Positions 27,414 through 64,000 of a stretch of DNA of 64,000 bases are shown piece by piece (the stretch's first letter is position 1; every line of letters begins with the position of its first letter). The stretch is from IMG/VR virus record IMGVR_UViG_3300040801_001888; one strand, 5' to 3'. This DNA is from a virus. Its lineage: Duplodnaviria > Heunggongvirae > Uroviricota > Caudoviricetes. The notes under the pieces were generated by a model, which was not told the DNA's origin, did no database searches, and was given only the letters and a program-made list of their open reading frames with translations. The position numbers and the translations under genes are program-made.

Positions 27414-27442
27414 ACTATACGATAGCTAGCGTGTCAGTGCAA
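27414..27442 (-). promoter_or_regulatory. sigma70-consensus promoter (TTGCAC-N17-TATAGT) with conserved leader
   Basis: Read on the minus strand: TTGCACTGACACGCTAGCTATCGTATAGT, followed by ...caacctgagaggactttctgATG. Confidence 0.55.
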
Positions 27443-27448
27443 GTGGTT

Positions 27449-28963
27449 TTACTGCTTAGTGCCAAACCCGCGTTCTTTCTGATATTCCTTCATCGCGTCG
27501 CGCAGTGACTTTTGGTCCGCGCTCTTGTTGTCGATCGCGCGACGCACCAGCAGGTCCACGGTATCGTGGGCGAGGATGCGGTGAATGATGACGCTCTTGG
27601 CGGTCTGCCCGGGGCGGCGCAGGCGCCCGTTGATCTGCAGGTACATCTCCAGGTCGTAGGTCAGCCCGAAATGCACCAGCTGGTGCCCGCCGAACTGGAG
27701 GTTCAATCCATGCCCGCTCGATTGCGGACTGGTGCATAGCCCGTCATACCCGCCCGCGTTCCAGTCCTCGATGATCTTCAGCGAGTCGATGTCACTGACG
27801 CCCGGACCCAGGTAGGCAACGCGAAACTTGCCCTTGTAGCGCTTCAGGATGCGCTCGGCGTCGGGGCGGAATGCGTAACTGATGATCACGCCACTGCCCC
27901 CGGACTCCTCCAGGATCTCGTCGAGCGCCTCCAGCTTGGCGTCGTGGACCGGGATCAGGGTCTCGCGCTCCTCGTGGTGGCGCACCACGCCGTTGGCTAC
28001 CTGGCGGCACTTCGCCGTCAGTGCCGCAGCGTTGAAGACCTCCAGTTCCATCTCGTCGAACTCGGCGAACATGTTCGCTTCTAGCTCGTCGTACTGCGCC
28101 CGCGCCTTCGGCGGAAGGTCGATCATGATGTCGTTGGTCACGTAGGGCGGCAGGTCCAGGTAGTCGTCCGAGGTAAGCGACACGGTGATGTCGGCGATCC
28201 GTTGCTCGATCTCCTCCTTGGCGCCAGGGCGTAGCCAGAGGCGGCGCTCGTACTGGTTTTCCTCGAAGTACTGGCGCTTGTAGTCGGTAATGTCGACACC
28301 GAGGCGCTTGCCGCCGTCGACCGCGAGGTACTGCCCGAACAGGTCGATGTAGCCATTGGGCGCCGGCGTGCCGGTGAGCCCGACGCGGCGCGGGGAATAA
28401 TCCAGCATGCAGACGCCGCCCGTCTTGGCGTGCCACGGGCCGATCCTGGCGCCCGTGGGCTTCTTGATCCGCGTGATCTCGTCAAAGATCACCATGTCGA
28501 AGGGCGGGTATCGTCCCTGGTGCAGGAACATCGTGTTGAGGTGGTTGTAGAGCCACGGCAGGGACTCGAAGTTGGTAACCCAGACGTCGTAGGGGCGGGT
28601 CAGCTCGCGCGCCAGCAGCTTCTTGTTCGAGCTGCGCAGGATGCACACCTTCAGGTGCTGGGTGTGCGCCCACTGCCGCGCCTCGATGTGCCAGACCGCC
28701 TCTGCCACCCGCCGAGGGGCGATCACCAGGACGCCTCGGATCATGCCCCAGGCTAAGAGGTCAGTAATAGCGGTTAGGCTGATGCTAGTCTTGCCCAAGG
28801 CTAAATCGACCTGCAGCATACTACCCGGATGCGCCACAATGAAGTCAGCCGCCTTAGTTTGGTACGGGCGCAGCATGGAGCGCGGACGGATTTCGCTATT
28901 CATACTGGTCAATAATGCCCTTGCCGTCCTCGACCGAGTCGCAGACGTAGACTGCCTGCTCAT
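27449..28963 (-). CDS. SNF2-family DNA helicase/translocase
   Basis: Helicase motif I (DLALGKT), motif II DEITRIK (DEAH-like), a C-terminal helicase domain with (Q)xxGRxxRxGQ (LQINGRLRRPGQT). Confidence 0.85.
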   Translation of the reverse strand: MSRQSTSATRSRTARALLTSMNSEIRPRSMLRPYQTKAADFIVAHPGSMLQVDLALGKTSISLTAITDLLAWGMIRGVLVIAPRRVAEAVWHIEARQWAHTQHLKVCILRSSNKKLLARELTRPYDVWVTNFESLPWLYNHLNTMFLHQGRYPPFDMVIFDEITRIKKPTGARIGPWHAKTGGVCMLDYSPRRVGLTGTPAPNGYIDLFGQYLAVDGGKRLGVDITDYKRQYFEENQYERRLWLRPGAKEEIEQRIADITVSLTSDDYLDLPPYVTNDIMIDLPPKARAQYDELEANMFAEFDEMELEVFNAAALTAKCRQVANGVVRHHEERETLIPVHDAKLEALDEILEESGGSGVIISYAFRPDAERILKRYKGKFRVAYLGPGVSDIDSLKIIEDWNAGGYDGLCTSPQSSGHGLNLQFGGHQLVHFGLTYDLEMYLQINGRLRRPGQTAKSVIIHRILAHDTVDLLVRRAIDNKSADQKSLRDAMKEYQKERGFGTKQ

Positions 28964-31418: not shown

Positions 31419-31612
31419 CAGTCGTCGTCCAGCGGTTCGGGGTTATCCCGCGAGTTGGCGCGGGCGATTAGGTTGTTGCATCGGGCTACTGCGTCAGTGC
31501 AGGCGCACCACAGCTGGTTCGGGGCTTCGGTGAAGTGGTCGCAATCCCGTTGCTTCTTGACGCTGTTGGCAGTGCAGACCCAACGGCGGTTACGCTTGGC
31601 GCAGTAGTTCAT
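31418..31612 (-). CDS. small Cys-rich (zinc-ribbon-like) protein
   Basis: 64 aa with CAKRNRRWVC...C...C...C. Confidence 0.3.
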   Translation of the reverse strand: MNYCAKRNRRWVCTANSVKKQRDCDHFTEAPNQLWCACTDAVARCNNLIARANSRDNPEPLDDD

Positions 31613-32481
31613 ACCGCCATCTCCATCTTGATTGCTGGGTGCGGGGAGTACCCTTGAAGCGAGAACGCCTGAGCGATGTCTTCGGCGGTCCGCAGATCCC
31701 CGATGTCGTCCAGGGTCTTGATCCGGTCATCGATGATCAGTTGCGGAGGCAACAGCGGAAGCCGATTAAGCTGTTCCTCAAGGGCTTCGATGTGGTTCTC
31801 GTAGACGTGCGCGTCGAAGGCGAAGTAGTGGAGCGTGCCGGGGACGTGCCCGGTAATCTGCGCCATCAACTGCAGCAGCATGCCGTACTGCGCCAGGTTG
31901 AACGGGGCGCCAAGTCCCAGGTCGTTGGAACGGATGTAGACGCTCATATCCAGCATGTCGCCAATCGCCCCGAACTGCATCATCATGTGGCACGGCGGGA
32001 GCGACATCAGGTGAAGCTCCGCTGGGTTCCATGCCGTGACGATCTCGCGGCGGGAGCCGGTGCCGGCGGAGAGGCTGTCAACGACTCTGCGTAGTTGATC
32101 GATCGCCGTGCCGTACTGAGTCCGCCAATTGCGCCACTGAACTCCGTACACGCGTCCGAGATCGTCCGGTCCTTTCCGGTGCTCATTGGAAAGCCACTCT
32201 CGGTTGTCATTGGCGTTGGCGTTCCAGACTTGGCAGCCCAGCTTGCGGAAGTCGGCAGCGTTGTCGAGACCCTGCATGAAGCCGATCATCTCGGCGTAGG
32301 CGGACATCCACGCGACCCGCTTGGTAGTCAGCACCGGGGCGCCTGCGGCGAGGTCGGCGGTCAGGTAGGCGCCATGAACCTCTAGCGCGTCGACGCCGGT
32401 GCGGTTGGTCGTGCATACCCCTTCGGTGAGCACTCGGTTAACGAGATGCAGGTATTGATGTTCTACGGGAACGTGGATCAT
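31609..32481 (-). CDS. thyA: thymidylate synthase family enzyme (ThyA-like; dUMP methylase or hydroxymethylase)
   Basis: TNRTGVDAL...PVLTTKR...LPPCHMMMQFG (catalytic Cys)...RSNDLGLGAPFNLAQY (Asn retained at the ThyA-N177 position). Start trimmed to the MIHVPVEHQYL methionine, which aligns with the ThyA N-terminus. Confidence 0.85.
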   Translation of the reverse strand: MIHVPVEHQYLHLVNRVLTEGVCTTNRTGVDALEVHGAYLTADLAAGAPVLTTKRVAWMSAYAEMIGFMQGLDNAADFRKLGCQVWNANANDNREWLSNEHRKGPDDLGRVYGVQWRNWRTQYGTAIDQLRRVVDSLSAGTGSRREIVTAWNPAELHLMSLPPCHMMMQFGAIGDMLDMSVYIRSNDLGLGAPFNLAQYGMLLQLMAQITGHVPGTLHYFAFDAHVYENHIEALEEQLNRLPLLPPQLIIDDRIKTLDDIGDLRTAEDIAQAFSLQGYSPHPAIKMEMAV

Positions 32482-32669
32482 TTTTCTGGTCCCATCACTT
32501 TCAGAATTCGGTTTAGAAGGGCGATCCGCTCCATGTTCCAGCCCCGTTGCTTCTCCGCCATGCGGCGGTTTCCGATGCGGTCGCAACGCTCAGCGTGGCG
32601 CTCCTGCACGGAGATCATCCCTTCCAGCAGTTCGATCTCGCGTTCTGTGAGTCGGTCGGACTTTTTCAC
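32478..32669 (-). CDS. hypothetical protein
   Basis: 63 aa, ATGA overlap. Confidence 0.3.
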   Translation of the reverse strand: MKKSDRLTEREIELLEGMISVQERHAERCDRIGNRRMAEKQRGWNMERIALLNRILKVMGPEK

Positions 32670-43545: not shown

Positions 43546-45609
43546 CTAGACCGCTTGTTTCGGGTCGACAATGACGGTCAGCGGTCGACCATCGGTCCGC
43601 AGGTGGATCGTCGCATCACGCGTCTCGGCGAAGCCCAGTCCGCTAAGCTGCTCCGCAGTGGGCTGGATCGCCATCCGCCCGGCGAGCACCTCGAATACCT
43701 TGCGATGCTCTCGGAGGTCCGGGCGCAGGAACTCGTTATAGAATCCCGGCACGGTCTCGTCGGTCCGGCACTTGTCGATCAGCAGCATCCAGTGCTTGTT
43801 GCCACTGGCTTTCCCGCGCCAGTAGTTCGGGCTCAACGTGATGATGTTGACCTCGTGGTAGGCGTCGAGGGCGAGACCCCACTGTTCCGCTACCGCCGGA
43901 CCACTGGTCTCGGAGACGCCTCGCTCAACCCGGAAGTCCGTGACCTCACCGCCTTTGATGGTCATCACGGCTACTTTGGCGGTCGCTCCTGACGTCCTTG
44001 GCGACTCGACCATCGACAGGTGGCGCGTCTGCCCATCGATCTCGATCTCGATCTCGAAGCCGGAGTCGATGCGCTCGCGACGCGTGAAGTTGACGACCGC
44101 GATGCGGTAGTCGCCATCGGGCATGACCTTCTGCCAAGTGACGTTCTCGACAGCATTCCTGACGGGCTTGGCTACGTTCATGTCGACGTCTAACTCGCCT
44201 TTGCTCAACTCCCCCCGCTTGTCGTGGTAGAAGATGTGCTCTTGCCTCCCGGAATTATTCGCCGGAAAGTAGAGAACGTGCAGGTCCAGGTCGTCGGTGT
44301 TGTGCCACGACAAGCTGACCCGTCCCCAGCCGGTGACGTTACCTCCGGCACGCTTCACGCGCTCCTTGATCGAGTCCGTGACGCCGCCCCGGTAGGACCA
44401 CGCGATGGGCGAGCCCCATGCCAGCAGCGACGGCGCCTCCGGGTTCTGGGCGGTGGTCAACGTGACCAGGTTGCTGACCAACGGCGGTTGGAACAGCACC
44501 TCCAGCTTCCGGCACTCGCGCTCCTGGAGCACCTGCGGCAGGTGCTGGATCGGCACGATCTCTCCGTGCGTGGCAGTCGGGCGGCGCCGACGCGGAGCAG
44601 CGATATCGCCGGCGAGAATGTCATCGATCGTCTGGCGCATCTTAGGCGCGGTCGAGCGATTGACGAACAGCACGTCGGCGACGCTCAGGTCCGCCTCAGT
44701 CGCTAGGCGGCGCGGCAGGCTATCCAGCAGGCCAAGCTCGGTGATCGTGTCTTGCGCCTTGCTGACCATCATTGCGCTGATCGCTGCCGACGAGCGCTGA
44801 TAGTTGCCCGGTGCGACGATCCGCTCATAGACCCGGACGGCGTCGTCGAGGTTCACGGCTTCCGAGATGCTCACGAGCAGCGTGCCGATCGAGCTGTTGC
44901 GCAGTAGCAGACGGTGGTCGAACACGCGGCTCCAGACGTAGCGCTCACGCTGCCAAGAGCCCGACGGCAACGCCTCGTAGGCGATGCTAGCGTCGAGTAG
45001 CGCCTGCACAGAGTCTCTGTTCTGTGCGCCACGGTACAGTCCGTTGTCGATCAGCTCGAGCAGCGTGCGGATGTGCGTGCTGTTGATCTCCGCCAGCGTC
45101 CGCGCGATGACTCCAGCATTGGTCTCGATCGGCCCCTGCTTGTTGCGCGGGATAGGCGCGAACCGTGCGCGCGGGATCTCACAATGGAAGTGATGCCATG
45201 CGATCTCGCCGCCGTCGGCTGCCTCGTACGTGACCTCCGCGCCGGCCTTGCGCTCCTTCGAGAAGAACACCGTGCGGATCGCCGCCTGGGAGACGAGATC
45301 ATGCAGCGCCTTCGCGACGGTACGGTAGGGCTCGGGCAGACGATCGTAGCCGGACCAGATGGTCTCCAGGGTCAAGGCAGGCGTGATCGCAACAACGTTG
45401 CCCATCTGCTTGATGAAGCCCCTGCAGCAGGAGCAATCGTGCTCGGTACGCTCGCGGAACAGCGGGTCAGTACCGGGCGGGAACGCACCGAGGTAGGTGG
45501 TCCAAAGATCGTCACCGGACACGTCAGCGACGTAGGGCGTACCGCTCATAATGCGGTCGGCGGATCGGCGGACGTTATCGGCGAACAGCGTGAATTGATC
45601 GGTAGACAT
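43546..45609 (-). CDS. large early protein of unknown function
   Basis: 687 aa with HDCSCCRGF near the N-terminus; no P-loop or other recognisable catalytic signature; strong coding-like composition. Confidence 0.5.
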   Translation of the reverse strand: MSTDQFTLFADNVRRSADRIMSGTPYVADVSGDDLWTTYLGAFPPGTDPLFRERTEHDCSCCRGFIKQMGNVVAITPALTLETIWSGYDRLPEPYRTVAKALHDLVSQAAIRTVFFSKERKAGAEVTYEAADGGEIAWHHFHCEIPRARFAPIPRNKQGPIETNAGVIARTLAEINSTHIRTLLELIDNGLYRGAQNRDSVQALLDASIAYEALPSGSWQRERYVWSRVFDHRLLLRNSSIGTLLVSISEAVNLDDAVRVYERIVAPGNYQRSSAAISAMMVSKAQDTITELGLLDSLPRRLATEADLSVADVLFVNRSTAPKMRQTIDDILAGDIAAPRRRRPTATHGEIVPIQHLPQVLQERECRKLEVLFQPPLVSNLVTLTTAQNPEAPSLLAWGSPIAWSYRGGVTDSIKERVKRAGGNVTGWGRVSLSWHNTDDLDLHVLYFPANNSGRQEHIFYHDKRGELSKGELDVDMNVAKPVRNAVENVTWQKVMPDGDYRIAVVNFTRRERIDSGFEIEIEIDGQTRHLSMVESPRTSGATAKVAVMTIKGGEVTDFRVERGVSETSGPAVAEQWGLALDAYHEVNIITLSPNYWRGKASGNKHWMLLIDKCRTDETVPGFYNEFLRPDLREHRKVFEVLAGRMAIQPTAEQLSGLGFAETRDATIHLRTDGRPLTVIVDPKQAV

Positions 45610-46321: not shown

Positions 46322-46384
46322 GGTCTTTCCTCTCAGGTTGCGGTTGTGGTTGATGGTCCGGGTTGCTCCCTGACCATGGAAAGT

Positions 46385-46412
46385 ATTATACAGTAGCTAA
46401 CGTGTCAGTCAA
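46385..46412 (-). promoter_or_regulatory. sigma70-consensus promoter (TTGACT-N16-TATAAT) + conserved 60-nt leader
   Basis: Minus-strand TTGACTGACACGTTAGCTACTGTATAAT; leader ...ggtcagggagcaacccggaccatcaaccacaaccgcaacctgagaggaaagaccATG. Confidence 0.6.
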
Positions 46413-46520
46413 GCGTTTATTTCGATTTATTTTGCTTTCCTGTTGCGCCGCTTTTCGGCGGCGTTTCCGTTTAGTGTGGTCGGTACCCAATACCAACCGC
46501 GTTCAGGATCTCGGCGTCGA

Positions 46521-47222
46521 TCAGCGGCGGCTAATCGGAGAGGCCGCTGGCGTTGACCTGCGCTGCCCAATCATGGACTTACGTTTGTTTGAACGCTCGC
46601 GCGCTAAGCCAGGGTTGCCTTTCCAGGAGGATTCGTAGCTCTCCGGCAAACGGGCTTTTTTGACCTTTATGGCGTAAATCAGCTTCGGAACCACTGTCTT
46701 GCGCGTGTGCTTAGCTTTTAGCCCGCCGCTCCCTTTCTCCTGGGCGTGTTGTTTCGTGTTCCCCTTGGTGACCCCGAGAAAGGTCCAGTTGTCCGCGAGG
46801 TAGAGCGTACCTAGTCGATCGGATTGCCCGTCGCGGCGTTCCTCAATAATGAAGGTCTCGAACCCGGCGACCTTCACGCCGTAAAGGTACTCCCAGTCCC
46901 ACGCGATCCGCTTGCGCCAAGCGGACAAGATGCGCGTGGCTCTGTTTGGCGCGGGCACCTCGAGCCTGAAAACGTTGTTACTGATGATCCCGTTCAGCTG
47001 CACTTGCTTGACCGCTTTGCTTTTGCTGAGACCGAAAAAACGATCGCGCGGACCGACGTCGTACGTTGCGCTGGCGCCGCTGATGATGCCGACCAGCTCG
47101 CCGCTGTCAAACGCCAGGTAATGCAGTTGCTGACCGTGGCATCCGCTGTTAGGGATGTAGTGTCGGTCTCGGATCGACTTATAGCGCGGGTCGGTGCGCT
47201 TAACACATTCAAGTTCAATCAT
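46521..47222 (-). CDS. R-M-operon-associated protein of unknown function (basic C-terminal tail)
   Basis: 233 aa; 4-nt overlap with the REase-like gene; C-terminal ~80 aa are Lys/Arg-rich; no DPPY/NPPY motif. Confidence 0.45.
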   Translation of the reverse strand: MIELECVKRTDPRYKSIRDRHYIPNSGCHGQQLHYLAFDSGELVGIISGASATYDVGPRDRFFGLSKSKAVKQVQLNGIISNNVFRLEVPAPNRATRILSAWRKRIAWDWEYLYGVKVAGFETFIIEERRDGQSDRLGTLYLADNWTFLGVTKGNTKQHAQEKGSGGLKAKHTRKTVVPKLIYAIKVKKARLPESYESSWKGNPGLARERSNKRKSMIGQRRSTPAASPISRR

Positions 47223-48100
47223 TGTTGCTCTCGATAGAACCCTGTCGGTACGCTCCTAACTGTCAGCGACCCACCAAACGCGCCGGGTTTTATATTGCTT
47301 TTCATGTGGCTACGCCACTGCAACGTAAACCCAGAGGAGGTCAAAGAGATAATGTGCAACGGCTTCTGAACGCTGCCGCGCGTCTCTATAACTACGTCCT
47401 GTTGCGGCAGGGGGATTTTGCGGCAGTTGAGGGAGCCGTGAAAGTTGTACCCGTCTATCATAGCGCCGTCGCTTCCCCCTATGAGTAGGTAGTGGTCGGT
47501 ATGCCCTAACGCGGCACGGAATATCTGAATGAGGTCTTGGCGCCTCCTCAGTTCTTTCTCTATGATAGTGACCGCTACGATCTCCGCTATCGTGCGTTGG
47601 GGCGGGACGTTTTTGGAGTAGCGCCCCTTTTGGTCTTCCAAGAACCAGAGAATCGACTGTATGTCGTTTCGATATTGGGGGCTGGTTTCCAACTCGCCAG
47701 GGAACGGGAGATAATCAATGTTCTCTTGACGTATTCGGTGCCCCGCCACTTCGCGGCTGTTGTGCTTGACCGAGCACGGTACTTCGCGTCCCCCGCTGCC
47801 GTAGCAAGTGATGTCGGCGAAATTGTGGTTTTGCCCTGTCAGCTTCACAGTGTGAATATCAGGCTCTTTATTCAATAGCTTTTCAGCAAGCCATTTCGCC
47901 TGTTCACGCATCCGTCTACGGCGAGCAAACGCCGCCTTGACGCCCTTGTCGTCTTTTGCCAACCCTGGCATTGATCTCACGGCGTAAAGAACCGACGATA
48001 GCCTAGCATCGCGGATTAGCTTGACCCCGGGTTGCTTGCTAATTGCAAACGCTACTGCGTACTCCATTGCCAGTCCGTTCGATACTCTTATCTGGTTCAT
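47219..48100 (-). CDS. candidate type II restriction endonuclease
   Basis: ~293 aa from MNQIRV; its ATG overlaps the TGA of the Dam-like MTase (ATGA); lower GC than neighbours; size and position consistent with a DpnII/MboI-like partner of a GATC methylase, but no motif proves nuclease identity. Confidence 0.5.
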   Translation of the reverse strand: MNQIRVSNGLAMEYAVAFAISKQPGVKLIRDARLSSVLYAVRSMPGLAKDDKGVKAAFARRRRMREQAKWLAEKLLNKEPDIHTVKLTGQNHNFADITCYGSGGREVPCSVKHNSREVAGHRIRQENIDYLPFPGELETSPQYRNDIQSILWFLEDQKGRYSKNVPPQRTIAEIVAVTIIEKELRRRQDLIQIFRAALGHTDHYLLIGGSDGAMIDGYNFHGSLNCRKIPLPQQDVVIETRGSVQKPLHIISLTSSGFTLQWRSHMKSNIKPGAFGGSLTVRSVPTGFYREQQ

Positions 48101-48903
48101 TCTTCTGCGCCTCTGCTGAGGATGATAACCTCGGCGCCGTCTTTCTCCGCGCTCATGCCGTACTTCCACTCCTTCGGGATCGAACGCAGACCCGCGTACA
48201 GCTTACGGACTTGCTCGCAGTCGTTGTAGCTCAGCACCCAACGCACGCCGTGCATGTCGAGCTTGCGCAAGATGTTGCTGAGCTTTAGGTGGTTGAAGTC
48301 GTCCCCGTGGGCGCTGCCCTTGTCACCATACAGCTTGTTCTTGCCGTTGGTCAGCAGATAGGGCGGGTCCAGGTAGATCGTCGCTGGGGCGGCGAACCGA
48401 AGCGGGCGGCGGCGCAGGCTATCGAACGCATCGGCTGACCCGAACGACAACCCCGGCGGCGGGACAAAGTCGGCGAGGCGCTCCAGCGCGCTTTCGGTAT
48501 AACGGTCAGCAGACCCCATGCCGCCTGATAGCGTCGTGCCGGAAAAGGAACTGCGGTTGACGGCGTAGAACCAGCACGCTTGCTGGAATGGCGTCCCGTA
48601 TCCAGCGCGCAGTTGATTCTGCGCCAATGCGAACATGTCCTTGTCCATGGGGAAGAAGCGCCGGCGCAGGTAGCTCGCCATCGCCGGTCCCTGCCCAGCG
48701 AAGACCTGCTTCCAGAAGTTGACGAGGGGCTGGAAGGCGTCGCGAGCGACAACCTTGCCGTTGGGGTTTGCCGCAAGCCAGGCAAACTCAACCGCGCCGC
48801 CACCAAAGAAGGGGCTGTAGAGCGTCGTCGTGTCTACGGGAATCAGTGGTAGGATCTTGGTCGTGGCGCGTTGCTTGCCGCCGGGGTAGCGTAGAAGGCA
48901 CAT
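48097..48903 (-). CDS. Dam-like (D12-class) DNA N6-adenine methyltransferase
   Basis: N-terminus MCLLRYPGGKQR (RYPGGK AdoMet motif of the Dam/DpnM family) and catalytic DPPY (IYLDPPYLL); 268 aa. Confidence 0.85.
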   Translation of the reverse strand: MCLLRYPGGKQRATTKILPLIPVDTTTLYSPFFGGGAVEFAWLAANPNGKVVARDAFQPLVNFWKQVFAGQGPAMASYLRRRFFPMDKDMFALAQNQLRAGYGTPFQQACWFYAVNRSSFSGTTLSGGMGSADRYTESALERLADFVPPPGLSFGSADAFDSLRRRPLRFAAPATIYLDPPYLLTNGKNKLYGDKGSAHGDDFNHLKLSNILRKLDMHGVRWVLSYNDCEQVRKLYAGLRSIPKEWKYGMSAEKDGAEVIILSRGAEE

Positions 48904-48969
48904 AGTGCGGAATCCTCTCAGGTTGCGGTTGTGGTTGATGGTCCGGGTTGCTCCCTGACCATGGAGAGT

Positions 48970-48997
48970 ATTATACAGTAGCTAGCGTGTCAGTCAA
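48970..48997 (-). promoter_or_regulatory. sigma70-consensus promoter (TTGACT-N16-TATAAT) driving the MTase/REase operon
   Basis: Near-identical copy of the 46,385 element, including the same long leader and the RBS gagaggattccgcactATG. Confidence 0.6.
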
Positions 48998-49167
48998 GCC
49001 TCTTTTTTTTTCTTTTTTACCTTATCGTAAGCTTCCAGAGCTTGCGGCATTGTCGTGTTGATACCTTCACGCGCTTGCGTCGCGACAATGGCTCTCGCGA
49101 ACAGTTCGCGCCGCAATTGGGCGCTTTTAAGGATTCTCGGTAAGAGTGCGCGCCGGCTGCTCTTCAC

Positions 49168-49857: not shown

Positions 49858-50154
49858 TTACTCGCCGAGCGTGCTTTGCGACTGGGTTTCGCATTGGTTC
49901 AGTGCTCCTAAGATCTTGAAGGCGGTCTGCTGGCTCCACGTCATCACGCCGGGGTTGAAGGTCGCGATCATGGCGTTGCTCGTAGTGCGGGTGGGTCCGC
50001 GCAGGACCATCTGGTGGACGTCGCCGTTGCGGTCGTTCTCCAGGTAGTACGGACCCGGCGGCACCGTGTCGATGCGATCGACGTGGAAGCGTGCGACGCT
50101 GGCTTCCAGATCGATGCCTTCAGGGGCGTAGTAGTTCAGTGTTTCGGATGACAT
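49858..50154 (-). CDS. hypothetical protein
   Basis: 98 aa. Confidence 0.35.
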   Translation of the reverse strand: MSSETLNYYAPEGIDLEASVARFHVDRIDTVPPGPYYLENDRNGDVHQMVLRGPTRTTSNAMIATFNPGVMTWSQQTAFKILGALNQCETQSQSTLGE

Positions 50155-50199
50155 GGTCGTTCCTCTTAGGTTGCGCCCAGCCGAGACCGGGCGTCTGGG

Positions 50200-50807: not shown

Positions 50808-51001
50808 TGGTCTGCTCCGGAGGCGATGCGAAGGCGGTTCTTGTTGAAGTCGTGACGCAGTTGGGTCAGCCTGGACATCATGAAGTAGTCGGTCCATGCC
50901 GGGTTGGAAAGACGACTTTCCTCGGTGCTGGTGGTCTCTCGCAGGCGCCGGGACTGCCCCAGGATGATTCGGGCGTCCTCGTCGGTGAGCATGATTCTCA
51001 T
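50804..51001 (-). CDS. hypothetical protein
   Basis: 65 aa, first gene after the promoter at 51,046-51,073. Confidence 0.35.
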   Translation of the reverse strand: MRIMLTDEDARIILGQSRRLRETTSTEESRLSNPAWTDYFMMSRLTQLRHDFNKNRLRIASGADQ

Positions 51002-51045
51002 ATCGGCGTTCCTCTTAGGTTGCGTTTGTTGCTGCGATGGAGAGT

Positions 51046-51073
51046 ATTATACATGGCTTGCGTGTCAGTGCAA
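51046..51073 (-). promoter_or_regulatory. sigma70-consensus promoter (TTGCAC-N16-TATAAT)
   Basis: Minus-strand TTGCACTGACACGCAAGCCATGTATAAT + leader catcgcagcaacaaacgcaacctaagaggaacgccgatATG. Confidence 0.6.
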
Positions 51074-51107
51074 GCCTTTTTAGCTCTCTTATCGACTAAC
51101 GAGTGAT

Positions 51108-51572
51108 CTACTCGGCGAGCACCAGGCGCAGCTTTCCGAGGGTGCCTTCGCGGTCGCTTTGGAGATAGCGCTTCGGCAGCGACGCAACGAACGCCTGCCC
51201 TGGGTGGCGATGGTACGCCCGGATGACCCGCTCACCGACTTTGAGCAAGTACTTCGGCTTCGGGGGCTCGCCCGTGAACGCCCGGCGCGACGCCGGACGC
51301 CGGACACCGATTGATCGGGCTATCGATTGCCACACGCGGTCGTGCTTGTGCTCCGGTCCGGCGATGGCGTGCGCTATTTCGTGCAGGATGGTCTGCTCGG
51401 TGGCGTCGCCCGACTCGGTGGCGGTGAGAACGCGGGAGAGCTGGATCTCGCGCGTAACGTAGCGGCACAGTCCGAAGCTGGTCTTGCGGTTGTTCCAGCT
51501 GAAGGCCCAGCTGGAGTCCAGGTGCTTAGCGATCAGGGCGCGGGCCAGGGTCTGGGCGGCGTTCAGGTCCAT
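51108..51572 (-). CDS. SprT-like zinc metalloprotease domain protein
   Basis: HEIAHAIAGPEHKHDRVW (HExxH) in a SprT-like context (WAFSWNNRKTSFGLC). Confidence 0.6.
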   Translation of the reverse strand: MDLNAAQTLARALIAKHLDSSWAFSWNNRKTSFGLCRYVTREIQLSRVLTATESGDATEQTILHEIAHAIAGPEHKHDRVWQSIARSIGVRRPASRRAFTGEPPKPKYLLKVGERVIRAYHRHPGQAFVASLPKRYLQSDREGTLGKLRLVLAE

Positions 51573-51653
51573 GGGCGTTCCTCTCAGGAGGCTGTTGGGT
51601 TGGCTGGTTGGTGGGTTGGTAGGTTGGCGCCCGGCTGCCCCGGGCGGCGCTGG

Positions 51654-51927: not shown

Positions 51928-51955
51928 ATTATACAGGGCTTGCGTGTCAGTGCAA
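51928..51955 (-). promoter_or_regulatory. sigma70-consensus promoter (TTGCAC-N16-TATAAT)
   Basis: Identical core to 51,046 and 54,876; same CATCGCAGCAACGAACGCAACCTAAGAGGAACG leader. Confidence 0.6.
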
Positions 51956-52014
51956 GCCCTTTCTTCGATTTATTTTGATTCTTTCAGGGCGCCGTCCATG
52001 GCGTGGCGCGGCGG

Positions 52015-52239
52015 TTAGTCGAGGCGGGCCGCGTCGCGTGGGACTTTACGCGGACCTCCGAGGCCGACCTGCTCGTTACGGATCTTGACCTCGCGCGGGG
52101 CGCTGAACAGCAGCTGAAGATGACCGCGCTCGGCCATGCGGACATAGACGCCGACGGGGTCCGCTTGACCGGGGATGTCCATGCGGACGTAGTCCCAACC
52201 AGCGGGGCGGCGGTAAAGGTCGACTTTCAAGTTACCCAT
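52015..52239 (-). CDS. hypothetical protein
   Basis: 74 aa. Confidence 0.35.
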   Translation of the reverse strand: MGNLKVDLYRRPAGWDYVRMDIPGQADPVGVYVRMAERGHLQLLFSAPREVKIRNEQVGLGGPRKVPRDAARLD

Positions 52240-53368
52240 GTGCGTTCTCCTGGAAAGGGTTAGCCGCTCGTGGTATCGGTTTCGGGGTACGGTTCAGACA
52301 AGGCGACACGTACTGCCGCAGGATCTGCACAGCTTCGTTGAGCCGAGCCTGGAACTCCTCCGGGTAGCGATCCGGGTGTATCAAGCGGATCAGTTTACTG
52401 AACGTCTCCACCGGCATGATCGCGGTCATGCCCTCACGGATCTGGCGCGCTCGGCGAGCCTCGGCCATCCTTTGCCGTTCGAGATCCGACGCAGCGTCGA
52501 GCTTCACCTGCCACTGGGCGCGGAGCTTTTCCATCTCGACGCGCAGTTCGGCGTTACCGACCGCGCGGATGCGGGCGACCTCCTTCTGCACGAGCTGGTC
52601 GAACTCGCGCTGCTTACGCTGGCTCAGCGTTTCCTTCTGCTGTTGGATCTCCGCCTTAACAGTATCGGGCTCGCGCGCGGCTTTAAGCTGGTAGGCGATC
52701 TCTTGGTGCCGCTGGATTTGTTCCGGCGTGCAGCCTCCTTGCGGGAACTGCGCGTCAGGAGCGATCTCCAGGATGGATTGCTTCAGGGCGGTCTTCTGTA
52801 CCGAGCTTAGGTTCGATCGCGGGCACAGTTCGGCGTCGCCATAGGGCAGCGTCCAGGACTGGCGCACGGGCTTGCTTTCCGTCTTCGGCTTGCTCTCGGT
52901 CTTCAGCTTGCTCTCGGTCTTCAGCTTGCTCTCGGTCTTCGGCTTGCTCTCGGTCTTCGGCTTGCGTGCCTTCACCTCCTTACGTACTTGGTTCACGGTC
53001 CAGTCCTCTTTAGCGGCTCGCTCCAGTACCTCGGCGCGTTCCTCGGGGGTGGGCAGGCTGGCGGCGACTTCGTGAGCCCTAAAGCAGATGTCAGTCCGAA
53101 CTGACATTTGGTATTTCTGGCTTACGCTTGCGTAATTACGGGCTACTGCGTAGTTCAGCCCCGCCTTCTCACACGCCGCCTTCTTGTCGCCCCAGGGGAT
53201 GCCGTTGTACCAGTCGCCGATCAGCCACTGGAGGGACTTGTCCGCGCGTCCGAGTGCGGTGCCCATGTCGAGCCACTCTTGCTCGGTTGGGTCGCCATGG
53301 ACCTCCAACCCCGTCAGGGTTGCGCGCAGGTTCGGGGTTGAGTCGATTTCGATCATTTCGTTATCCAT
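52232..53368 (-). CDS. J-domain (DnaJ-like) protein with a central KPKTES tandem-repeat tract
   Basis: C-terminal FSKLIRLIHPDRYPEEFQARLNEAVQIL carries the HPD tripeptide in J-domain helix context; the centre has (KPKTES)n encoded by an 18-bp tandem repeat. Confidence 0.5.
   Translation of the reverse strand: MDNEMIEIDSTPNLRATLTGLEVHGDPTEQEWLDMGTALGRADKSLQWLIGDWYNGIPWGDKKAACEKAGLNYAVARNYASVSQKYQMSVRTDICFRAHEVAASLPTPEERAEVLERAAKEDWTVNQVRKEVKARKPKTESKPKTESKLKTESKLKTESKPKTESKPVRQSWTLPYGDAELCPRSNLSSVQKTALKQSILEIAPDAQFPQGGCTPEQIQRHQEIAYQLKAAREPDTVKAEIQQQKETLSQRKQREFDQLVQKEVARIRAVGNAELRVEMEKLRAQWQVKLDAASDLERQRMAEARRARQIREGMTAIMPVETFSKLIRLIHPDRYPEEFQARLNEAVQILRQYVSPCLNRTPKPIPRAANPFQENAHG
52871..52960. 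repeat. 18-bp tandem repeat x5 (cttgctctcggtcttcRg) encoding (KPKTES)n on the minus strand
   Basis: Direct reading of the sequence; four perfect and one degenerate copies. Confidence 0.8.
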
Positions 53369-54875: not shown

Positions 54876-54903
54876 ATTATACAGGGCTTGCGTGTCAGTG
54901 CAA
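54876..54903 (-). promoter_or_regulatory. sigma70-consensus promoter (TTGCAC-N16-TATAAT)
   Basis: Identical core; located between the terminator at 54,936-54,972 and the gene starting at 54,826. Confidence 0.6.
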
Positions 54904-54935
54904 GCCTTTTTCGATACTATTTTTCTTCAGACAAA

Positions 54936-59423: not shown

Positions 59424-59924
59424 TTAGATTGTGGACATGTACGCGCGGAGGGATTTTGTTGATGTCAGGACGCGGACCTCGCGTTTCGTGGTGTGGCACC
59501 ACGTTAACGCGCCATCGCGCACGCCATCCCCCAGAACTACCAAAACAGGCTCCATTGTCGGCGCGATGGCTTCCAGTGACAGTAGCCAGAACGGGAGCTT
59601 CTCATCAACGCTTCCCGATGTCCCCTGGTACTTCATTTCGATCAGCACTGGGCGGTTCCCCGCCTTGAACGGCGCGACGACGAAGTCCGCCTTGAACGGC
59701 GCTTTGTAGATCGATTGGTATGCTGGGATTTGCGTGTAGAAGAAACCCGGCTTGACTAGTAGCACCGGGTCAGCGCCGGCGTTGCACGCCAGAACCACGC
59801 TGGTGCGGTCTTTTCCCTCCGCCTCTTGGTACCCTCGGGCAAGCAGGTGGTCGTGGATGATCTGCTCGCCGAGGCGCCCTGATGTGTTGGCATGCACGCC
59901 TCCGTCTGGTTTTTGGCGGCTCAT
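59424..59924 (-). CDS. small PD-(D/E)XK-like nuclease candidate
   Basis: ...KADFVVAPFKAGNRPVLIEMKYQ... fits the D-x(n)-E-x-K core; 4-nt overlap with the upstream MTase gene. Confidence 0.45.
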   Translation of the reverse strand: MSRQKPDGGVHANTSGRLGEQIIHDHLLARGYQEAEGKDRTSVVLACNAGADPVLLVKPGFFYTQIPAYQSIYKAPFKADFVVAPFKAGNRPVLIEMKYQGTSGSVDEKLPFWLLSLEAIAPTMEPVLVVLGDGVRDGALTWCHTTKREVRVLTSTKSLRAYMSTI

Positions 59925-60574
59925 CGGTTGGCGCTCCTGTCGCGCTTCTGGATTGAGTCCACGTAACCCATGAATGGGAAGTGGGCTTTGCCCCGCGTGC
60001 CTGTTGCACCCTCAAACGCTTCGCGGGCGCGTCGTTGCGAGTCCCTTCTGTCAAGGCTTCTGTCGAAGAACAGTATCGATTGGCCCCTCGTGTTGCCCGA
60101 GACCTTTTTGCCGTCGACGTTCTCGAAAGCGATGCGTCCGAAGGGCATACAAACCGCAGTCAGGTACTCACAGTCGCGCAAGGATTTGTACCAAACCGTT
60201 TCCGTAGCGTTGTTGACTAGGACCACACCACGTTCGAAGTGTCCTGATTCCAGGTGTGCTACGAACGCCTGGATGGCGCCGTGCACCACGCCCCGCCCAT
60301 AAGGAGGGTTCATAAAGACGGTCCGCGCATGCGGCCATGGGGTGCGGATGGCGTCGTCGTCCTTGGTGTAGAACTGTTCAGCGTGAACGCCCCCTGGACG
60401 ATTGTTGGCGGCGATGCTGGAGAACGGGTCGAAGTCAATCGACCCGCGCTTCCTATCCAGCGCCCACCGAACGCGGGCGATGATGTCGGCTGGCGTGAAC
60501 CAGGAGTCGCTGTCCCGATTTTCGCCAGGCTTAGCGCCGATGTAGGCGAGTTTGTTTTTGTCTGCGATGTTCAA
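59921..60574 (-). CDS. phage-type DNA N6-adenine methyltransferase (T1/Dam PF05869-like), TTG start
   Basis: SWFTP and NPPYG (motif IV) in a 217-aa protein; RBS aagagg 8 nt upstream of the TTG. Confidence 0.7.
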   Translation of the reverse strand: MNIADKNKLAYIGAKPGENRDSDSWFTPADIIARVRWALDRKRGSIDFDPFSSIAANNRPGGVHAEQFYTKDDDAIRTPWPHARTVFMNPPYGRGVVHGAIQAFVAHLESGHFERGVVLVNNATETVWYKSLRDCEYLTAVCMPFGRIAFENVDGKKVSGNTRGQSILFFDRSLDRRDSQRRAREAFEGATGTRGKAHFPFMGYVDSIQKRDRSANR

Positions 60575-60597: not shown

Positions 60598-60632
60598 GTT
60601 CACATTTGTGAACAGACACAAACTGATGTGTC
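60598..60632. promoter_or_regulatory. two adjacent palindromic operator-like sites upstream of the TTG start of the phage Dam gene
   Basis: GTTCACATTTGTGAAC (perfect 7-2-7) and GACACAaactgatGTGTC (6-6-6). Confidence 0.45.
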
Positions 60633-60671
60633 GAGACAAGCATAGTGTAACGAAGACAAAGAACGCAAGCA

Positions 60672-60708
60672 GCAAAAAAGCCCCGATCGCATCGCTGCGA
60701 TCGGGGCT
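60672..60708 (-). terminator. rho-independent terminator (leftward) upstream of the MTase-nuclease cassette
   Basis: GCCCCGATCGCATCGCTGCGATCGGGGC (near-identical to the 59,383-59,410 hairpin) followed on the minus strand by T6; a second hairpin (CCCCGGTGC...GCGACCGGGG) lies at 60,731-60,760. Confidence 0.55.
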
Positions 60709-60793
60709 TGATCTGGTGCTACAATGCGAAACCCCGGTGCACTACGAATGCGACCGGGGCTTCTCCCTCAACACCTCACAGACAGGTATCAAG

Positions 60794-61459
60794 ATGCTTC
60801 CCATCTTAGCAGACACGTCAGTCTCCATGAACAGCCGCGAGATCGCGGAGCTGGTCGATTCTCGCCATGACAGCGTTAAGCGTGCTGTTGAGCGCCTCGC
60901 CGAAAGAGGAGTTATCACCCAGCCACCGACGGTGGATGGGATGAAATCAGCAAACGGCGTGATCGAAAAGCTCTACGTCTTCGACCAGGCGCACAAACGC
61001 GATTCCATCGTGGTGGTGGCACAGCTAAGCCCTGAGTTCACCGGCAAGCTGGTGGATCGCTGGCAAGAGTTAGAGGCGGGGGCTAAGCCGGTCGCCCTCT
61101 CAACCGGCGCTTTTCTGCTCCAGCAGGCGCAGATGCTCTACGAGATGGAACAGCGCCAGGCAGCAGCTGAGCAGCGCCAGGCGGCGACCGAGCAGCAGGT
61201 TGCGAAGATCACGGAGCGGGTCCAGCAGACGGAGACGGCGGTCGACTACTTCAGCGTGATTGGTTACCACCGTTACGTGCGGCGTGACGGTGATCTGACG
61301 CTGCCCCAGGCACAAGCCATGGGTAAGACGGCGACCGGATATTGCCGGGACCACGGCGTGCCTATGGCCGAGACCCCGGACCCCCGCTTCGGACGGGTCA
61401 ATACCTATCCGAAGTGGGTTCTTGACCACCTGTTCGGACCTGAGCAGTCCGCGCTGTAG
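60794..61459 (+). CDS. Rha-family phage regulatory protein
   Basis: MNSREIAELVDSRHDSVKRAVERL matches the conserved Rha N-terminal motif; start chosen downstream of the tandem minus-strand terminators that lie in the annotated 5' extension. Confidence 0.5.
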   Translation: MLPILADTSVSMNSREIAELVDSRHDSVKRAVERLAERGVITQPPTVDGMKSANGVIEKLYVFDQAHKRDSIVVVAQLSPEFTGKLVDRWQELEAGAKPVALSTGAFLLQQAQMLYEMEQRQAAAEQRQAATEQQVAKITERVQQTETAVDYFSVIGYHRYVRRDGDLTLPQAQAMGKTATGYCRDHGVPMAETPDPRFGRVNTYPKWVLDHLFGPEQSAL

Positions 61460-62523: not shown

Positions 62524-62551
62524 ATTATACAGGGCTAGCGTGTCAATGCAA
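62524..62551 (-). promoter_or_regulatory. sigma70-consensus promoter (TTGCAT-N16-TATAAT)
   Basis: Minus-strand TTGCATTGACACGCTAGCCCTGTATAAT upstream of the 62,488 start. Confidence 0.55.
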
Positions 62552-62763
62552 GCACTTTTTCGATAGATTCAAGAAATGCGTAACGACTGCAACACCGACA
62601 AGCCACAGAAGCACCCCTGGCACCCGATCGCCGATGTGGCGTGCGGCTACGATGAACGGATGACGGCAGCGGGCTGTTCCGGTTGCCATCGGCAGCGCGA
62701 GGAGTCGGCACTTGAGCAGTTGCAGCGGCTGGACGCCCGGCACACCGTCGATGGAATCGTGAA

Positions 62764-63111: not shown

Positions 63112-63375
63112 TCAGGCGTTAACGCGTCGATAGTTGCGTATCTTACTCGGTCCTTTTGCGAAGACTTCCCGGATATTCAACGGACGACCCACCTTGGTCA
63201 TAGCATCCAGGAAAAGGGCATAGTCCCGATCTTCCTCTAAATAGACGAAACGTCCGTTTTCGTAGGAGAAAGAGGAAATATTCTCGTAAATTCCGAGGCT
63301 CAAAACCAGCGTTTTAGAGACTCTGAGCCAACCGTGCGATGGATCAGAGAAAGCAGTGCAATTGTAAGTCTTCAT
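63112..63375 (-). CDS. hypothetical protein (first leftward early gene)
   Basis: 87 aa, immediately downstream of the rightmost consensus promoter. Confidence 0.35.
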   Translation of the reverse strand: MKTYNCTAFSDPSHGWLRVSKTLVLSLGIYENISSFSYENGRFVYLEEDRDYALFLDAMTKVGRPLNIREVFAKGPSKIRNYRRVNA

Positions 63376-63426
63376 GGGGATACCTCTCAGGATTTGGCTG
63401 TTGTTGCGAACTGCGACGATGGATGC

Positions 63427-63479: not shown

Positions 63480-64000
63480 AAAAAGATCGAAAGATAGGAT
63501 GGTCCCACCCTTCAGGTGGTTGCGGTAGGTTTTTGTATTGCCTCAGACGGTTGTAGCGGCAAAGCCGTAAGATAAGTTGGTTCCAGACCTTGACACCCTA
63601 GGGTAGATTTTTCGGTAGAATTTCGGGTTGCCTCAGGTGGATGTTCGCTAAGTCGTTGAAAACAAAGTCGAACGATAAGACGACCTTTACCCTCAAGAGG
63701 TTGCGGTAGAATTTTCGGTAGATTCGAGGCTTCGTTCGCTAAGTCGTTGATTTCAAAGGCGAACGATAAGACGACCTTTACCCTCAAGAGGTTGCGGTAG
63801 GTTTTCGCAAAGCCTCGAGCCGATCTATGGGGTCGTCCACGATTTGGCGTGTCCACATTTCGTGACCTTGACTGAGAAGCAGTCGCATTTGCAAGTGCTT
63901 GATTTTTGGTAGAATTTTCTGAAACCACGGGAAGCCGAGCCCGCTGTTCCGTCTCGCAGACGGCATCGGGAAGCCGAGCCCGCTGTTCCGTCTCGCAGAC
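63480..64000. repeat. non-coding repeat-rich region to the right of the early block
   Basis: Perfect 41-bp direct repeat cgaacgataagacgacctttaccctcaagaggttgcggtag at 63,669-63,709 and 63,760-63,800; at least 6 copies of GGTAG(A/G)(A/T)TTT(T/C)G; a 33-bp duplicate gggaagccgagcccgctgttccgtctcgcagac at 63,929-63,961 and 63,968-64,000. Confidence 0.6.

Follow-up and report, generated by a model that had tools for sequence, protein, structure and literature searches.

M.CbeI of Caldicellulosiruptor (Anaerocellum) bescii is annotated as a D12 adenine methyltransferase and carries a DPPY motif, yet it has been shown by experiment to make N4-methylcytosine (m4C) at GGCC (PDB 7M6B; PMC8616854; PMC3425538). 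Its cognate endonuclease is the HaeIII-like CbeI (PMC3425538). A gene pair resembling this restriction-modification (R-M) system lies in a three-gene leftward operon of a siphovirus, within a stretch of 64,000 nucleotides (nt) from the IMG/VR record IMGVR_UViG_3300040801_001888 (this whole stretch is called the window below). The pair is followed by a third gene for a GNAT-fold protein of the DruA family, the predicted structure of which resembles Mom of phage Mu. The best reading of the operon, with a probability of about 0.6, is an R-M pair of the CbeI type that is carried by a phage and coupled to a second, Mom-like enzyme of DNA modification.

The window pair and CbeI/M.CbeI have in common a D12-annotated, alpha-class DPPY methyltransferase encoded beside a HaeIII-family endonuclease (PMC3425538; PDB 7M6B). 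They differ in that the window pair is carried by a phage and CbeI by the chromosome of a thermophile, in the presence of a third coupled gene, and in that the window endonuclease is missed by PF09556, the Pfam profile of the HaeIII family. With that family the window endonuclease nonetheless shares a full-length profile match and the conserved elements G-K-A-F-E-Y-A, D...S-x-K, D-x-Y and N-F-x-G-T/S-L. The classical partner of HaeIII is a 5-methylcytosine methyltransferase, whereas the partner in the window belongs to the D12 class.

Mu Mom takes glycine from Gly-tRNA(Gly) and attaches it to adenine N6 in double-stranded DNA, where the glycyl group then rearranges to form N6-carbamoylmethyl-adenine (PMC13219725). 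The third protein of the operon is like Mom (PMC13219725; PDB 8BV8) in having a GNAT core without the coenzyme A (CoA) P-loop, a basic C-terminus and, by a weak alignment, an HY motif, a Ser/Thr at the position of S124 and a Tyr at that of Y159, and in being phage-encoded with single-gene action. Unlike Mom, it falls in the DruA Pfam family, has no com-like translational activator and lies within an R-M operon, not at the end of a late operon. With DruA of the type I Druantia defence system it shares an above-threshold match to PF14236, but it is a stand-alone phage protein of about 230 residues whose neighbours are the methyltransferase, the endonuclease and small phage genes. The protein has no PADLOC match, and no DruB-DruE genes stand beside its gene, as a type I Druantia system would require. 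The nearest precedent of the cassette is provided by jumbo phages, in which Mom domains are fused to endonuclease domains and a Mom-type GNAT is thus tied physically to a nuclease of the restriction type (Iyer et al., 2021, PMC7824862). The window differs from these fusions in its separate coupled genes, in its HaeIII-family nuclease with a cognate methyltransferase of its own, and in its carrier, a siphovirus of about 60 kb. Proteins like that of the third gene have already been mentioned in passing in cyanophages, as 'DruA-like' or 'Mom-like', and DruA-like proteins were noted in Synechococcus phages (bioRxiv 10.1101/2025.08.05.668817).

Organization of the operon

The elements of the operon and its boundaries, from upstream to downstream, are as follows.

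48970-48997, minus strand: sigma70-type promoter, TTGACT-16-TATAAT, 11/12 consensus positions, upstream of the operon
48904-48969, minus strand: 5' leader with a short hairpin (CCATGGTC...GGACCATC) and a ribosome-binding region (CCTGAGAGGA); it also heads the next transcription unit (repeat families D9 and D12)
48097-48903, minus strand: gene 1, predicted D12 DNA methyltransferase of 268 residues, alpha-class and M.CbeI-like, with the motifs RYPGGK, FGGG and DPPY
47219-48100, minus strand: gene 2 (the middle open reading frame, ORF), predicted HaeIII-family endonuclease of 293 residues from its ATG, a divergent PF09556 member with D96 and S110-x-K112
46521-47222, minus strand: gene 3, predicted GNAT-fold protein of the DruA/DUF4338 family, 233 residues, with a Mom-like structure and a basic C-terminus
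46445-46464, minus strand: GC-rich hairpin 3' of the last stop codon, a possible transcript end, without a U-run on the minus strand
46385-46412, minus strand: second copy of the operon promoter, at the start of the next leftward unit, marking the downstream boundary of the operon

Stop and start codons overlap as ATGA at both junctions, at 48100-48097 between genes 1 and 2 and at 47222-47219 between genes 2 and 3. A longer version of the middle ORF, from a GTG at 48169, was rejected because the family alignment begins at MNQIRV. Just downstream of gene 3 the promoter and about 90 nt of leader are duplicated (46322-46412 versus 48905-48997), the copies lying 2.6 kb apart; in repeat family D12, 46328-46438 and 48913-49023 are 89% identical over 111 nt. 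The 31-nt promoter core occurs only twice in the window, with a chance expectation of 0, and the scanned 4.5-kb operon region holds five promoter-like sites against 1.4 expected. The promoter/leader copy and the GC-rich hairpin downstream of gene 3 therefore bracket the three genes as one transcription unit, which is translationally coupled and stands under its own sigma70-like promoter.

A first-pass annotation, made from the sequence alone, had described three leftward genes with a consensus promoter of their own and a 4-nt ATGA overlap that is repeated at the second junction. This description stands: all three minus-strand ORFs are present, the promoter reads TTGACT-16-TATAAT from 48997 to 48970, and both overlaps are seen in the minus-strand sequence. 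The same annotation had called the two downstream genes low in GC and taken this dip as a sign of horizontal acquisition. Set against same-size windows (mean 0.593, standard deviation 0.04, over the window), the methyltransferase gene has a GC content of 0.621 (70th percentile), the endonuclease gene 0.533 (10th) and the third gene 0.575 (31st). Only the middle gene is somewhat low, and neither gene is an outlier; percentiles of this size give no footing to horizontal acquisition.

The promoter belongs to a wider set of repeats. The promoter-plus-leader module consists of TTGACTGACACG.TAGCTACTGTATAATACT, followed by the short hairpin and then by CAACCTGAGAGGA and the start codon. Its ribosome-binding part recurs before at least six leftward genes (D9, D12), with further copies at 50152-50190, 51001-51039, 51570-51608 and 63373-63411. 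A second group of promoter-like repeats (D10, D11), related to the first, has the minus-strand form AAAGGCTTGCACTGACACGCAAGCC.TGTATAAT and is found at 51046-51080, 51928-51962, 54876-54910, 62524-62558 and 27415-27449. The phage appears to use a stereotyped set of sigma70-type promoters, and the near-consensus operon promoter, drawn from a repeated family that serves the leftward block of small genes, suggests early expression of the operon. The leader was also considered as a structured regulatory RNA; this was dropped, the stability of its hairpin being like that of shuffled sequences (z -0.5 to -1.0).

A methyltransferase related to M.CbeI

The gene 1 product is assigned to the D12 class by PF02086 (E 2.8e-23) and matches the PADLOC model MTase_II (E 1.7e-36). 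Among all PDB sequences its only strong match is 7M6B, that is M.CbeI (94 bits, E 7e-26, residues 3-255), to which it is about 31% identical, while the GATC enzymes DpnM and T4 Dam reach 17.9 and about 16 bits. RYPGGK, GGGAV and LDPPY are common to the window protein and M.CbeI, as is the D12 fold with its FxGxG and DPPY motifs, a combination typical of alpha-class GGCC m4C methyltransferases of the M.CbeI/DmtB type. In deposited phages the nearest methyltransferases are cyanophage enzymes with about 30% identity. By homology, gene 1 is taken to encode an M.CbeI-like methyltransferase of the alpha-class D12 type, and it is predicted to make m4C at GGCC.

The first-pass annotation was right to place RYPGGK and DPPY in the methyltransferase (LRYPGGK and DPPY are found in the first product), but the Dam-like GATC specificity that it attached to them is not supported. 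With the Dam model TIGR00571 the protein scores 72.4 bits where 114.85 are required, and M.CbeI outscores DpnM and T4 Dam by 94 bits to 16-18. Moreover, M.CbeI is itself a DPPY enzyme that makes m4C at GGCC, so GATC does not follow from an RYPGGK/DPPY signature.

A second, unrelated DNA methyltransferase is encoded elsewhere in the window (59921-60574, minus strand). It matches the PF05869 'Dam' family with 57.7 bits and phrog_111, is apparently an orphan, and is adjoined by an anti-repressor-like gene (60608-61459). If virion DNA carried any N6-methyladenine at GATC, this PF05869 gene would be a more likely source than gene 1.

A divergent HaeIII-family endonuclease

Close relatives of the middle ORF are few: 5.8 billion proteins hold only three, and the window protein is counted in these. 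A profile built from these three sequences (A1) and searched against 1.84 billion representatives retrieved 60 relatives of about 280-330 residues, matched end to end. PF09556 (RE_HaeIII) recognizes 57 of the 58 aligned sequences (A3), with a best E of 8e-109, and the sole exception is the window protein. The relatives that are 48% (P0002) and 44% (P0003) identical to the middle ORF score 22.8 and 20.6 bits with PF09556, and P0125 scores 52.7 bits, the Pfam gathering score being 25 bits. Aligned by hhalign with 46 distant members that match PF09556, the A1 profile gives a probability of 99.86% (E 5.3e-31) over 276 columns.

The window endonuclease is only about 19% identical to typical members of the HaeIII family, and it keeps the invariant family columns S110, R122 and N219 together with the near-invariant G9, E13, G89, D96, K112, D202 and Y204. 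D96 and S110-x-K112 align with the family motifs GDVRDI and GISxK. From inspection of the sequence, we take these residues to resemble a catalytic core of the PD-(D/E)xK type, in its 'SxK' variant. Gene 2 is accordingly best described as a putative type II endonuclease of the HaeIII family, very divergent and with its conserved residues intact, and the enzyme is probably active. The middle ORF had been suspected to be a DpnII/MboI-like nuclease that cuts GATC; it falls in the HaeIII family instead, and so within a nuclease family and not, as would have told against the first-pass annotation altogether, in a non-nuclease one.

A scan of IMG/VR with the A1 alignment returned no matches, tblastn with two family members as queries found no HaeIII-family endonuclease in 50,697 deposited phage genomes, and tblastn with the window endonuclease against deposited phages found nothing.

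The probable R-M pair and its predicted specificity

The two genes are adjacent and separate, encode a PF02086 methyltransferase and a HaeIII-family endonuclease, and are joined by ATGA, as in a type II R-M system. A D12 methyltransferase gene that overlaps a HaeIII-family endonuclease gene by 4 nt is also found in two independent contigs (L089 and L090), whose methyltransferases are 39-44% identical to that of the window; the methyltransferase-endonuclease pair thus recurs as a module of two genes, of the CbeI type. Taken together, genes 1 and 2 very probably form an R-M pair of the HaeIII/CbeI type. The phage-borne, translationally coupled type II pair of the first-pass annotation is thereby retained, with PF02086 and HaeIII-family genes in a siphovirus window.

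For the pair, the homologies somewhat favour GGCC as the recognition site. In a second-order Markov model of the whole window, GGCC occurs 112 times against 387 expected (observed/expected ratio, O/E, 0.29; z -18.8), a 3.5-fold depletion that is uniform along the window and the strongest among the 256 tetramers. This depletion fits a conflict centred on GGCC. GATC, whose density the first-pass annotation had proposed to compare with expectation, shows no depletion (434 observed, 440 expected; O/E 0.99).

Strong avoidance of GGCC is common among IMG/VR and metagenome contigs (L003, L004, L008, L011, L024 and others) that carry relatives of gene 3 without an R-M pair, several standing at an O/E of 0-0.06, in a comparison that covered GNAT-bearing contigs.

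The third gene, a GNAT of the DruA family

The gene 3 product matches PF14236 (DruA, formerly DUF4338) with 53.4 bits (E 2.7e-14), above the gathering score of 27 bits; the match spans residues 13-161 and profile positions 64-226 of 297, and the gene 3 homologues listed carry PF14236 as well. DUF4338 has been classed as a GNAT domain by Aravind's group (PMC10853773). An AlphaFold2 model built with 44 homologues is confident, with a predicted local distance difference test score (pLDDT) of 87 and a predicted template modelling score of 0.85.

In all three structure searches with this model Mom ranks first, with a sequence identity about twice that of any other GNAT. It is the top Foldseek match in the PDB (E 5.5e-7, the next best being about 60-fold worse), and the top match among the BFVD viral models is the 'Mom' of a Salmonella phage (E 1.8e-8). 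Further BFVD matches include many 'endonuclease-like' proteins of 500-700 residues, which, judged by name and length, resemble the jumbo-phage Mom-endonuclease fusions. In sequence, the protein reaches the PHROG Mom-like family with E 0.0094. By a weak alignment, Mom H58/Y59 correspond to H21/Y22 of gene 3, which are invariant in its family, the essential S124 to T96, which is Ser or Thr across the family, and Y159 to Y141 (residue roles and numbering of Mom, in which R111, S124, D149 and R151 are essential, from PMC13219725). At the position of the CoA-binding loop of ordinary GNATs, both gene 3 and Mom have P-x-N-x-x-(S/T)-R. Like Mom, the gene 3 family also shows numerous invariant positions with Arg, Lys or an aromatic residue and is basic at the C-terminus. 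Given the DruA score of 53.4 bits, the weak alignment to Mom and the first rank of Mom by structure, the protein is therefore classed as a Mom-like GNAT of the DruA family, outside the Mom family itself.

These results redraw what had been said of the third gene. The first-pass annotation had noted that its product has no (D/N/S)PP(Y/F) motif, and indeed no PP motif is seen. The basic disordered tail that it described is basic, and its last ~10 residues are modelled with low confidence, but residues 204-217 form a confidently modelled helix. As roles it had offered a specificity or controller subunit, a second nuclease subunit or an anti-restriction factor. A GNAT-fold DruA/Mom-like protein displaces the subunit roles, and of the options given the anti-restriction factor comes closest.

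Recurrence of the three-gene cassette

Stand-alone GNATs of the DruA/DUF4338 family, about 200-300 residues long, form at least 268 clusters at 90% identity (E <= 1e-3). The family is viral: there are 113 confirmed relatives in IMG/VR and at least 348 in metagenomes, while the genomes of 185,579 bacterial and archaeal species yield only 7 loci. The majority of copies stand alone in varied surroundings (326 neighbours fall into 208 clusters), and none of 80 IMG/VR loci has a methyltransferase or endonuclease gene beside the GNAT gene.

The order methyltransferase, middle gene, GNAT is nevertheless found in 15 other metagenomic loci (L001, L002, L091, L092-L094, L095, L096, L097 and L099-L104), usually with overlapping stop and start codons. 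These loci hold the closest relatives of the window GNAT. Across them, identity to the window is 49-72% for the methyltransferases and 54-68% for the GNATs, and the middle gene evolves fast, being detectable as HaeIII-family in 10 of the loci and sometimes only at E 1e-12. Of the 110 GNAT loci whose upstream sequence is long enough for a judgement, 9 have the cassette. With 15 cassette loci in a mostly solitary family, the linkage is therefore recurrent and conserved, not universal. By crude neighbour joining, the GNATs of the cassettes fall into four separate pure clades, upon which the idea that the cassette arose once within the family was dropped; the tree is too rough to tell ancient linkage with losses from repeated capture.

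Megablast of the operon and tblastn with the GNAT, each run against deposited phages, found nothing. In the searchable literature, in which papers on the genomic context of Mom are incompletely covered, no description of the three-gene cassette was found, and the cassette is apparently undescribed.

In L092 (405-1076, minus strand), and also in L093, a gene divergent from the methyltransferase gene encodes a winged-helix regulator of 223 residues with a TrmB/IclR-type helix-turn-helix. It could be a controller of the cassette version found there, which has a 183-residue middle protein; no counterpart is present in the window. That 183-residue protein of L092 was itself tried as a member of the HaeIII family and rejected, with an hhalign probability of 2% and only a 34-residue C-terminal resemblance to the proteins of L091 and L095.

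A model for the operon and its alternatives

In the reading preferred here, the operon would be expressed by the host RNA polymerase as an early unit of a lytic-type siphovirus. The methyltransferase would act on phage DNA as it replicates and mark the target site there, with m4C at GGCC as the most likely mark, and owing to this methylation packaged genomes would reach the next host pre-protected. Through the ATGA coupling, synthesis of the endonuclease would depend on and follow translation of the methyltransferase, which would be made before it or together with it. The endonuclease could then cut unmodified DNA of the host or of competing phages, and GGCC methylation would also shield the 112 residual GGCC sites from GGCC-cutting enzymes of the host. 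The GNAT may, like Mom with its Gly-tRNA, load DNA bases with an acyl or aminoacyl group and thereby add a second, independent and broader protection.

Several observations weigh against this reading. On the side of the R-M pair, the middle ORF itself has no direct match in Pfam, PHROGs, PADLOC, NCBIfam or PDB sequences, PF09556 giving none even at E 10, and its AlphaFold2 model, made from the three-sequence alignment, has a pLDDT of 46 and is unusable for a fold search. The predicted specificity is extrapolated from identities of about 31% (M.CbeI) and 19% (HaeIII family). Enzymes so divergent can recognize other sites. Nor does the depletion of GGCC serve as proof of endonuclease specificity, and it was dropped as such, for GNAT contigs without an R-M pair are as depleted or more: the median GGCC O/E over 44 such loci is 0.43, and L003 and L004 have 2 and 1 sites against 35 expected in each. 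The window is moreover without CCGCGG (0 against 31-43 expected) and GAGCTC (0 against 13-20), and general avoidance of host enzymes therefore explains the GGCC depletion as well. Other palindromes are also rare, with one GGATCC (11-20 expected), one GGGCCC, two CGGCCG and a CTAG O/E of 0.57, and the missing six-base palindromes suggest selection by several host restriction systems. As to the cassette, in five loci representing two cassette versions (L092-L094, L096 and L097) the middle gene encodes the unrelated, hypervariable 183-residue protein, and the endonuclease is therefore not an obligatory partner.

On the side of gene 3, the protein fails the Pfam Mom profile (PF25680: 14.4 bits, E 0.029, gathering score 27.1), its match to the Mu Mom sequence is weak (E 0.011), and the match to a profile of 36 Mom family members has a probability of 45% (E 2e-4). 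R111, D149 and R151 of Mom have no aligned counterpart, the invariant R86, E127 and R136 lying close by. Action of the GNAT on DNA is a tentative proposal that falls slightly short of an even chance. The bolder form of it, which is possible but doubtful, is that a DruA-family Mom-like GNAT installs a new base modification, in which the exocyclic amine of adenine or cytosine could receive an acyl or aminoacyl group, possibly in a tRNA-dependent way, and that this GNAT is wired to a GGCC-type R-M pair in a previously unrecognized three-component system.

What else could the GNAT act on? It is possible that it acetylates a protein or a charged tRNA and not DNA, and so tunes or delays the endonuclease, inactivates a host defence or shuts off host translation. 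The GNAT toxins TacT and AtaT, which shut off translation, provide a model. Such a role would suit the unmatched R111, D149 and R151 of Mom, an operon without a C-protein, in which another control of the endonuclease would be useful, and a family in which most homologues are solitary phage genes with heterogeneous neighbours. It is, however, unlikely in view of the first rank of Mom in all three structure searches at about twice the identity of other GNATs, the replacement of the canonical CoA pyrophosphate loop by the Mom-like P-x-N-x-x-S/T-R, and the invariant Arg, Lys and aromatic residues and basic C-terminus shared with Mom; the recurrent place of the gene within an R-M operon also points to DNA.

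Alternatively, the operon may be a protective unit in which the methyltransferase and the GNAT are under selection and the middle gene is the decaying or inactive remnant of an endonuclease from a captured R-M module. The middle gene is only 44-48% identical in its closest relatives, against 49-72% and 54-68% for methyltransferases and GNATs across the cassettes; it is replaced by unrelated 183-residue proteins in the five loci named above; and the genome is already depleted in GGCC, like those of many phages without the endonuclease. Decay is hard to reconcile with a full-length protein that aligns end to end with its family, keeps every invariant or near-invariant column, D96, S110 and K112 included, and is translationally coupled on both sides. 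Rapid divergence is, besides, normal for active restriction enzymes. A remnant is on balance improbable.

Far less probable still is that the three proteins form one pathway towards a single complex base modification, with the HaeIII-like protein as a sequence-recognition or base-flipping module and not a nuclease. The tight coupling of the three genes, their recurrent order and the Mom-endonuclease fusions of jumbo phages would be expected of a single pathway, but a compact methyltransferase-endonuclease pair exists in L089 and L090 (contigs that end too soon to show any GNAT), the pairing matches the biochemically characterized CbeI system, the GNAT family is mostly solitary and the nuclease motif is intact. 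Finally, a Dam-type GATC methyltransferase with a DpnII/MboI-like GATC-cutting endonuclease, which RYPGGK, DPPY and the D12 class common to Dam and DpnM would allow along with the weak Dam TIGRFAM match of 72 bits, is largely refuted by a Dam score below the cut-off of 114.85, by the 16-18 bits of DpnM and T4 Dam against 94 for M.CbeI, by the placement of the endonuclease in the HaeIII and not the DpnII/MboI family, by a GATC frequency at expectation (434 versus 440) and by the separate PF05869 methyltransferase at 59921-60574, a better GATC candidate.

Implications

Complete R-M systems are unusual in virulent-type phages, and the pair of genes 1 and 2 would be a divergent new member of the CbeI type in an unusual carrier. 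It also corrects the specificity predicted for such enzymes: the DPPY/RYPGGK 'Dam-like' signature need not mean GATC, the closest characterized enzyme making m4C at GGCC. A widespread, uncharacterized phage family, the stand-alone DruA/DUF4338 GNATs, is tied to DNA modification structurally through Mom and genomically through the R-M operon. If the preferred reading in its bolder form were true, one operon would arm the phage with an offensive nuclease, protect its own DNA by methylation and add a protective hypermodification of broad spectrum, and DruA of type I Druantia would gain its first functional handle, as a DNA-modifying enzyme. The three-gene construct offers a concrete place to seek a new DNA modification and to probe the role of DruA in Druantia.

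Other features of the window

The window is a siphovirus genome, with genes for a tape measure protein, tail protein J, a collagen-like tail fibre, an endolysin, DNA polymerase A, helicases, a primase and a thymidylate synthase. Its DNA polymerase shares only about 34% identity with the enzymes of Chi-like and BcepNazgul-like phages. The thymidylate-synthase homologue (31609-32586, minus strand; phrog_160, E 1.5e-93, with a match that starts at residue 35) is a candidate for a plain ThyA or for a pyrimidine hydroxymethylase that feeds base modification.

Two genes downstream of the operon, a protein of 687 residues (43546-45609, minus strand) matches phrog_1735 from end to end (E 8e-187), a widespread phage family without a Pfam domain. 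The tail-fibre protein of 1337 residues (3666-7679, plus strand) has collagen-like GGTCCAGAG (G-P-E) repeats and PHROG tail-fibre matches, and long stretches of its gene, 147-300 nt, are duplicated internally (repeat families D1-D7). An 18-nt repeat (GCTTGCTCTCGGTCTTCA/G) occurs six times in tandem at 52852-52983, inside an ORF of 378 residues (52232-53368, minus strand) with no PHROG match. At the right edge of the window (63488-64000), direct repeats of 57-91 nt are clustered together with an exact 34-nt repeat (63928-63961 and 63967-64000; D13, D14, D20), and this cluster could be an origin or a regulatory iteron region.

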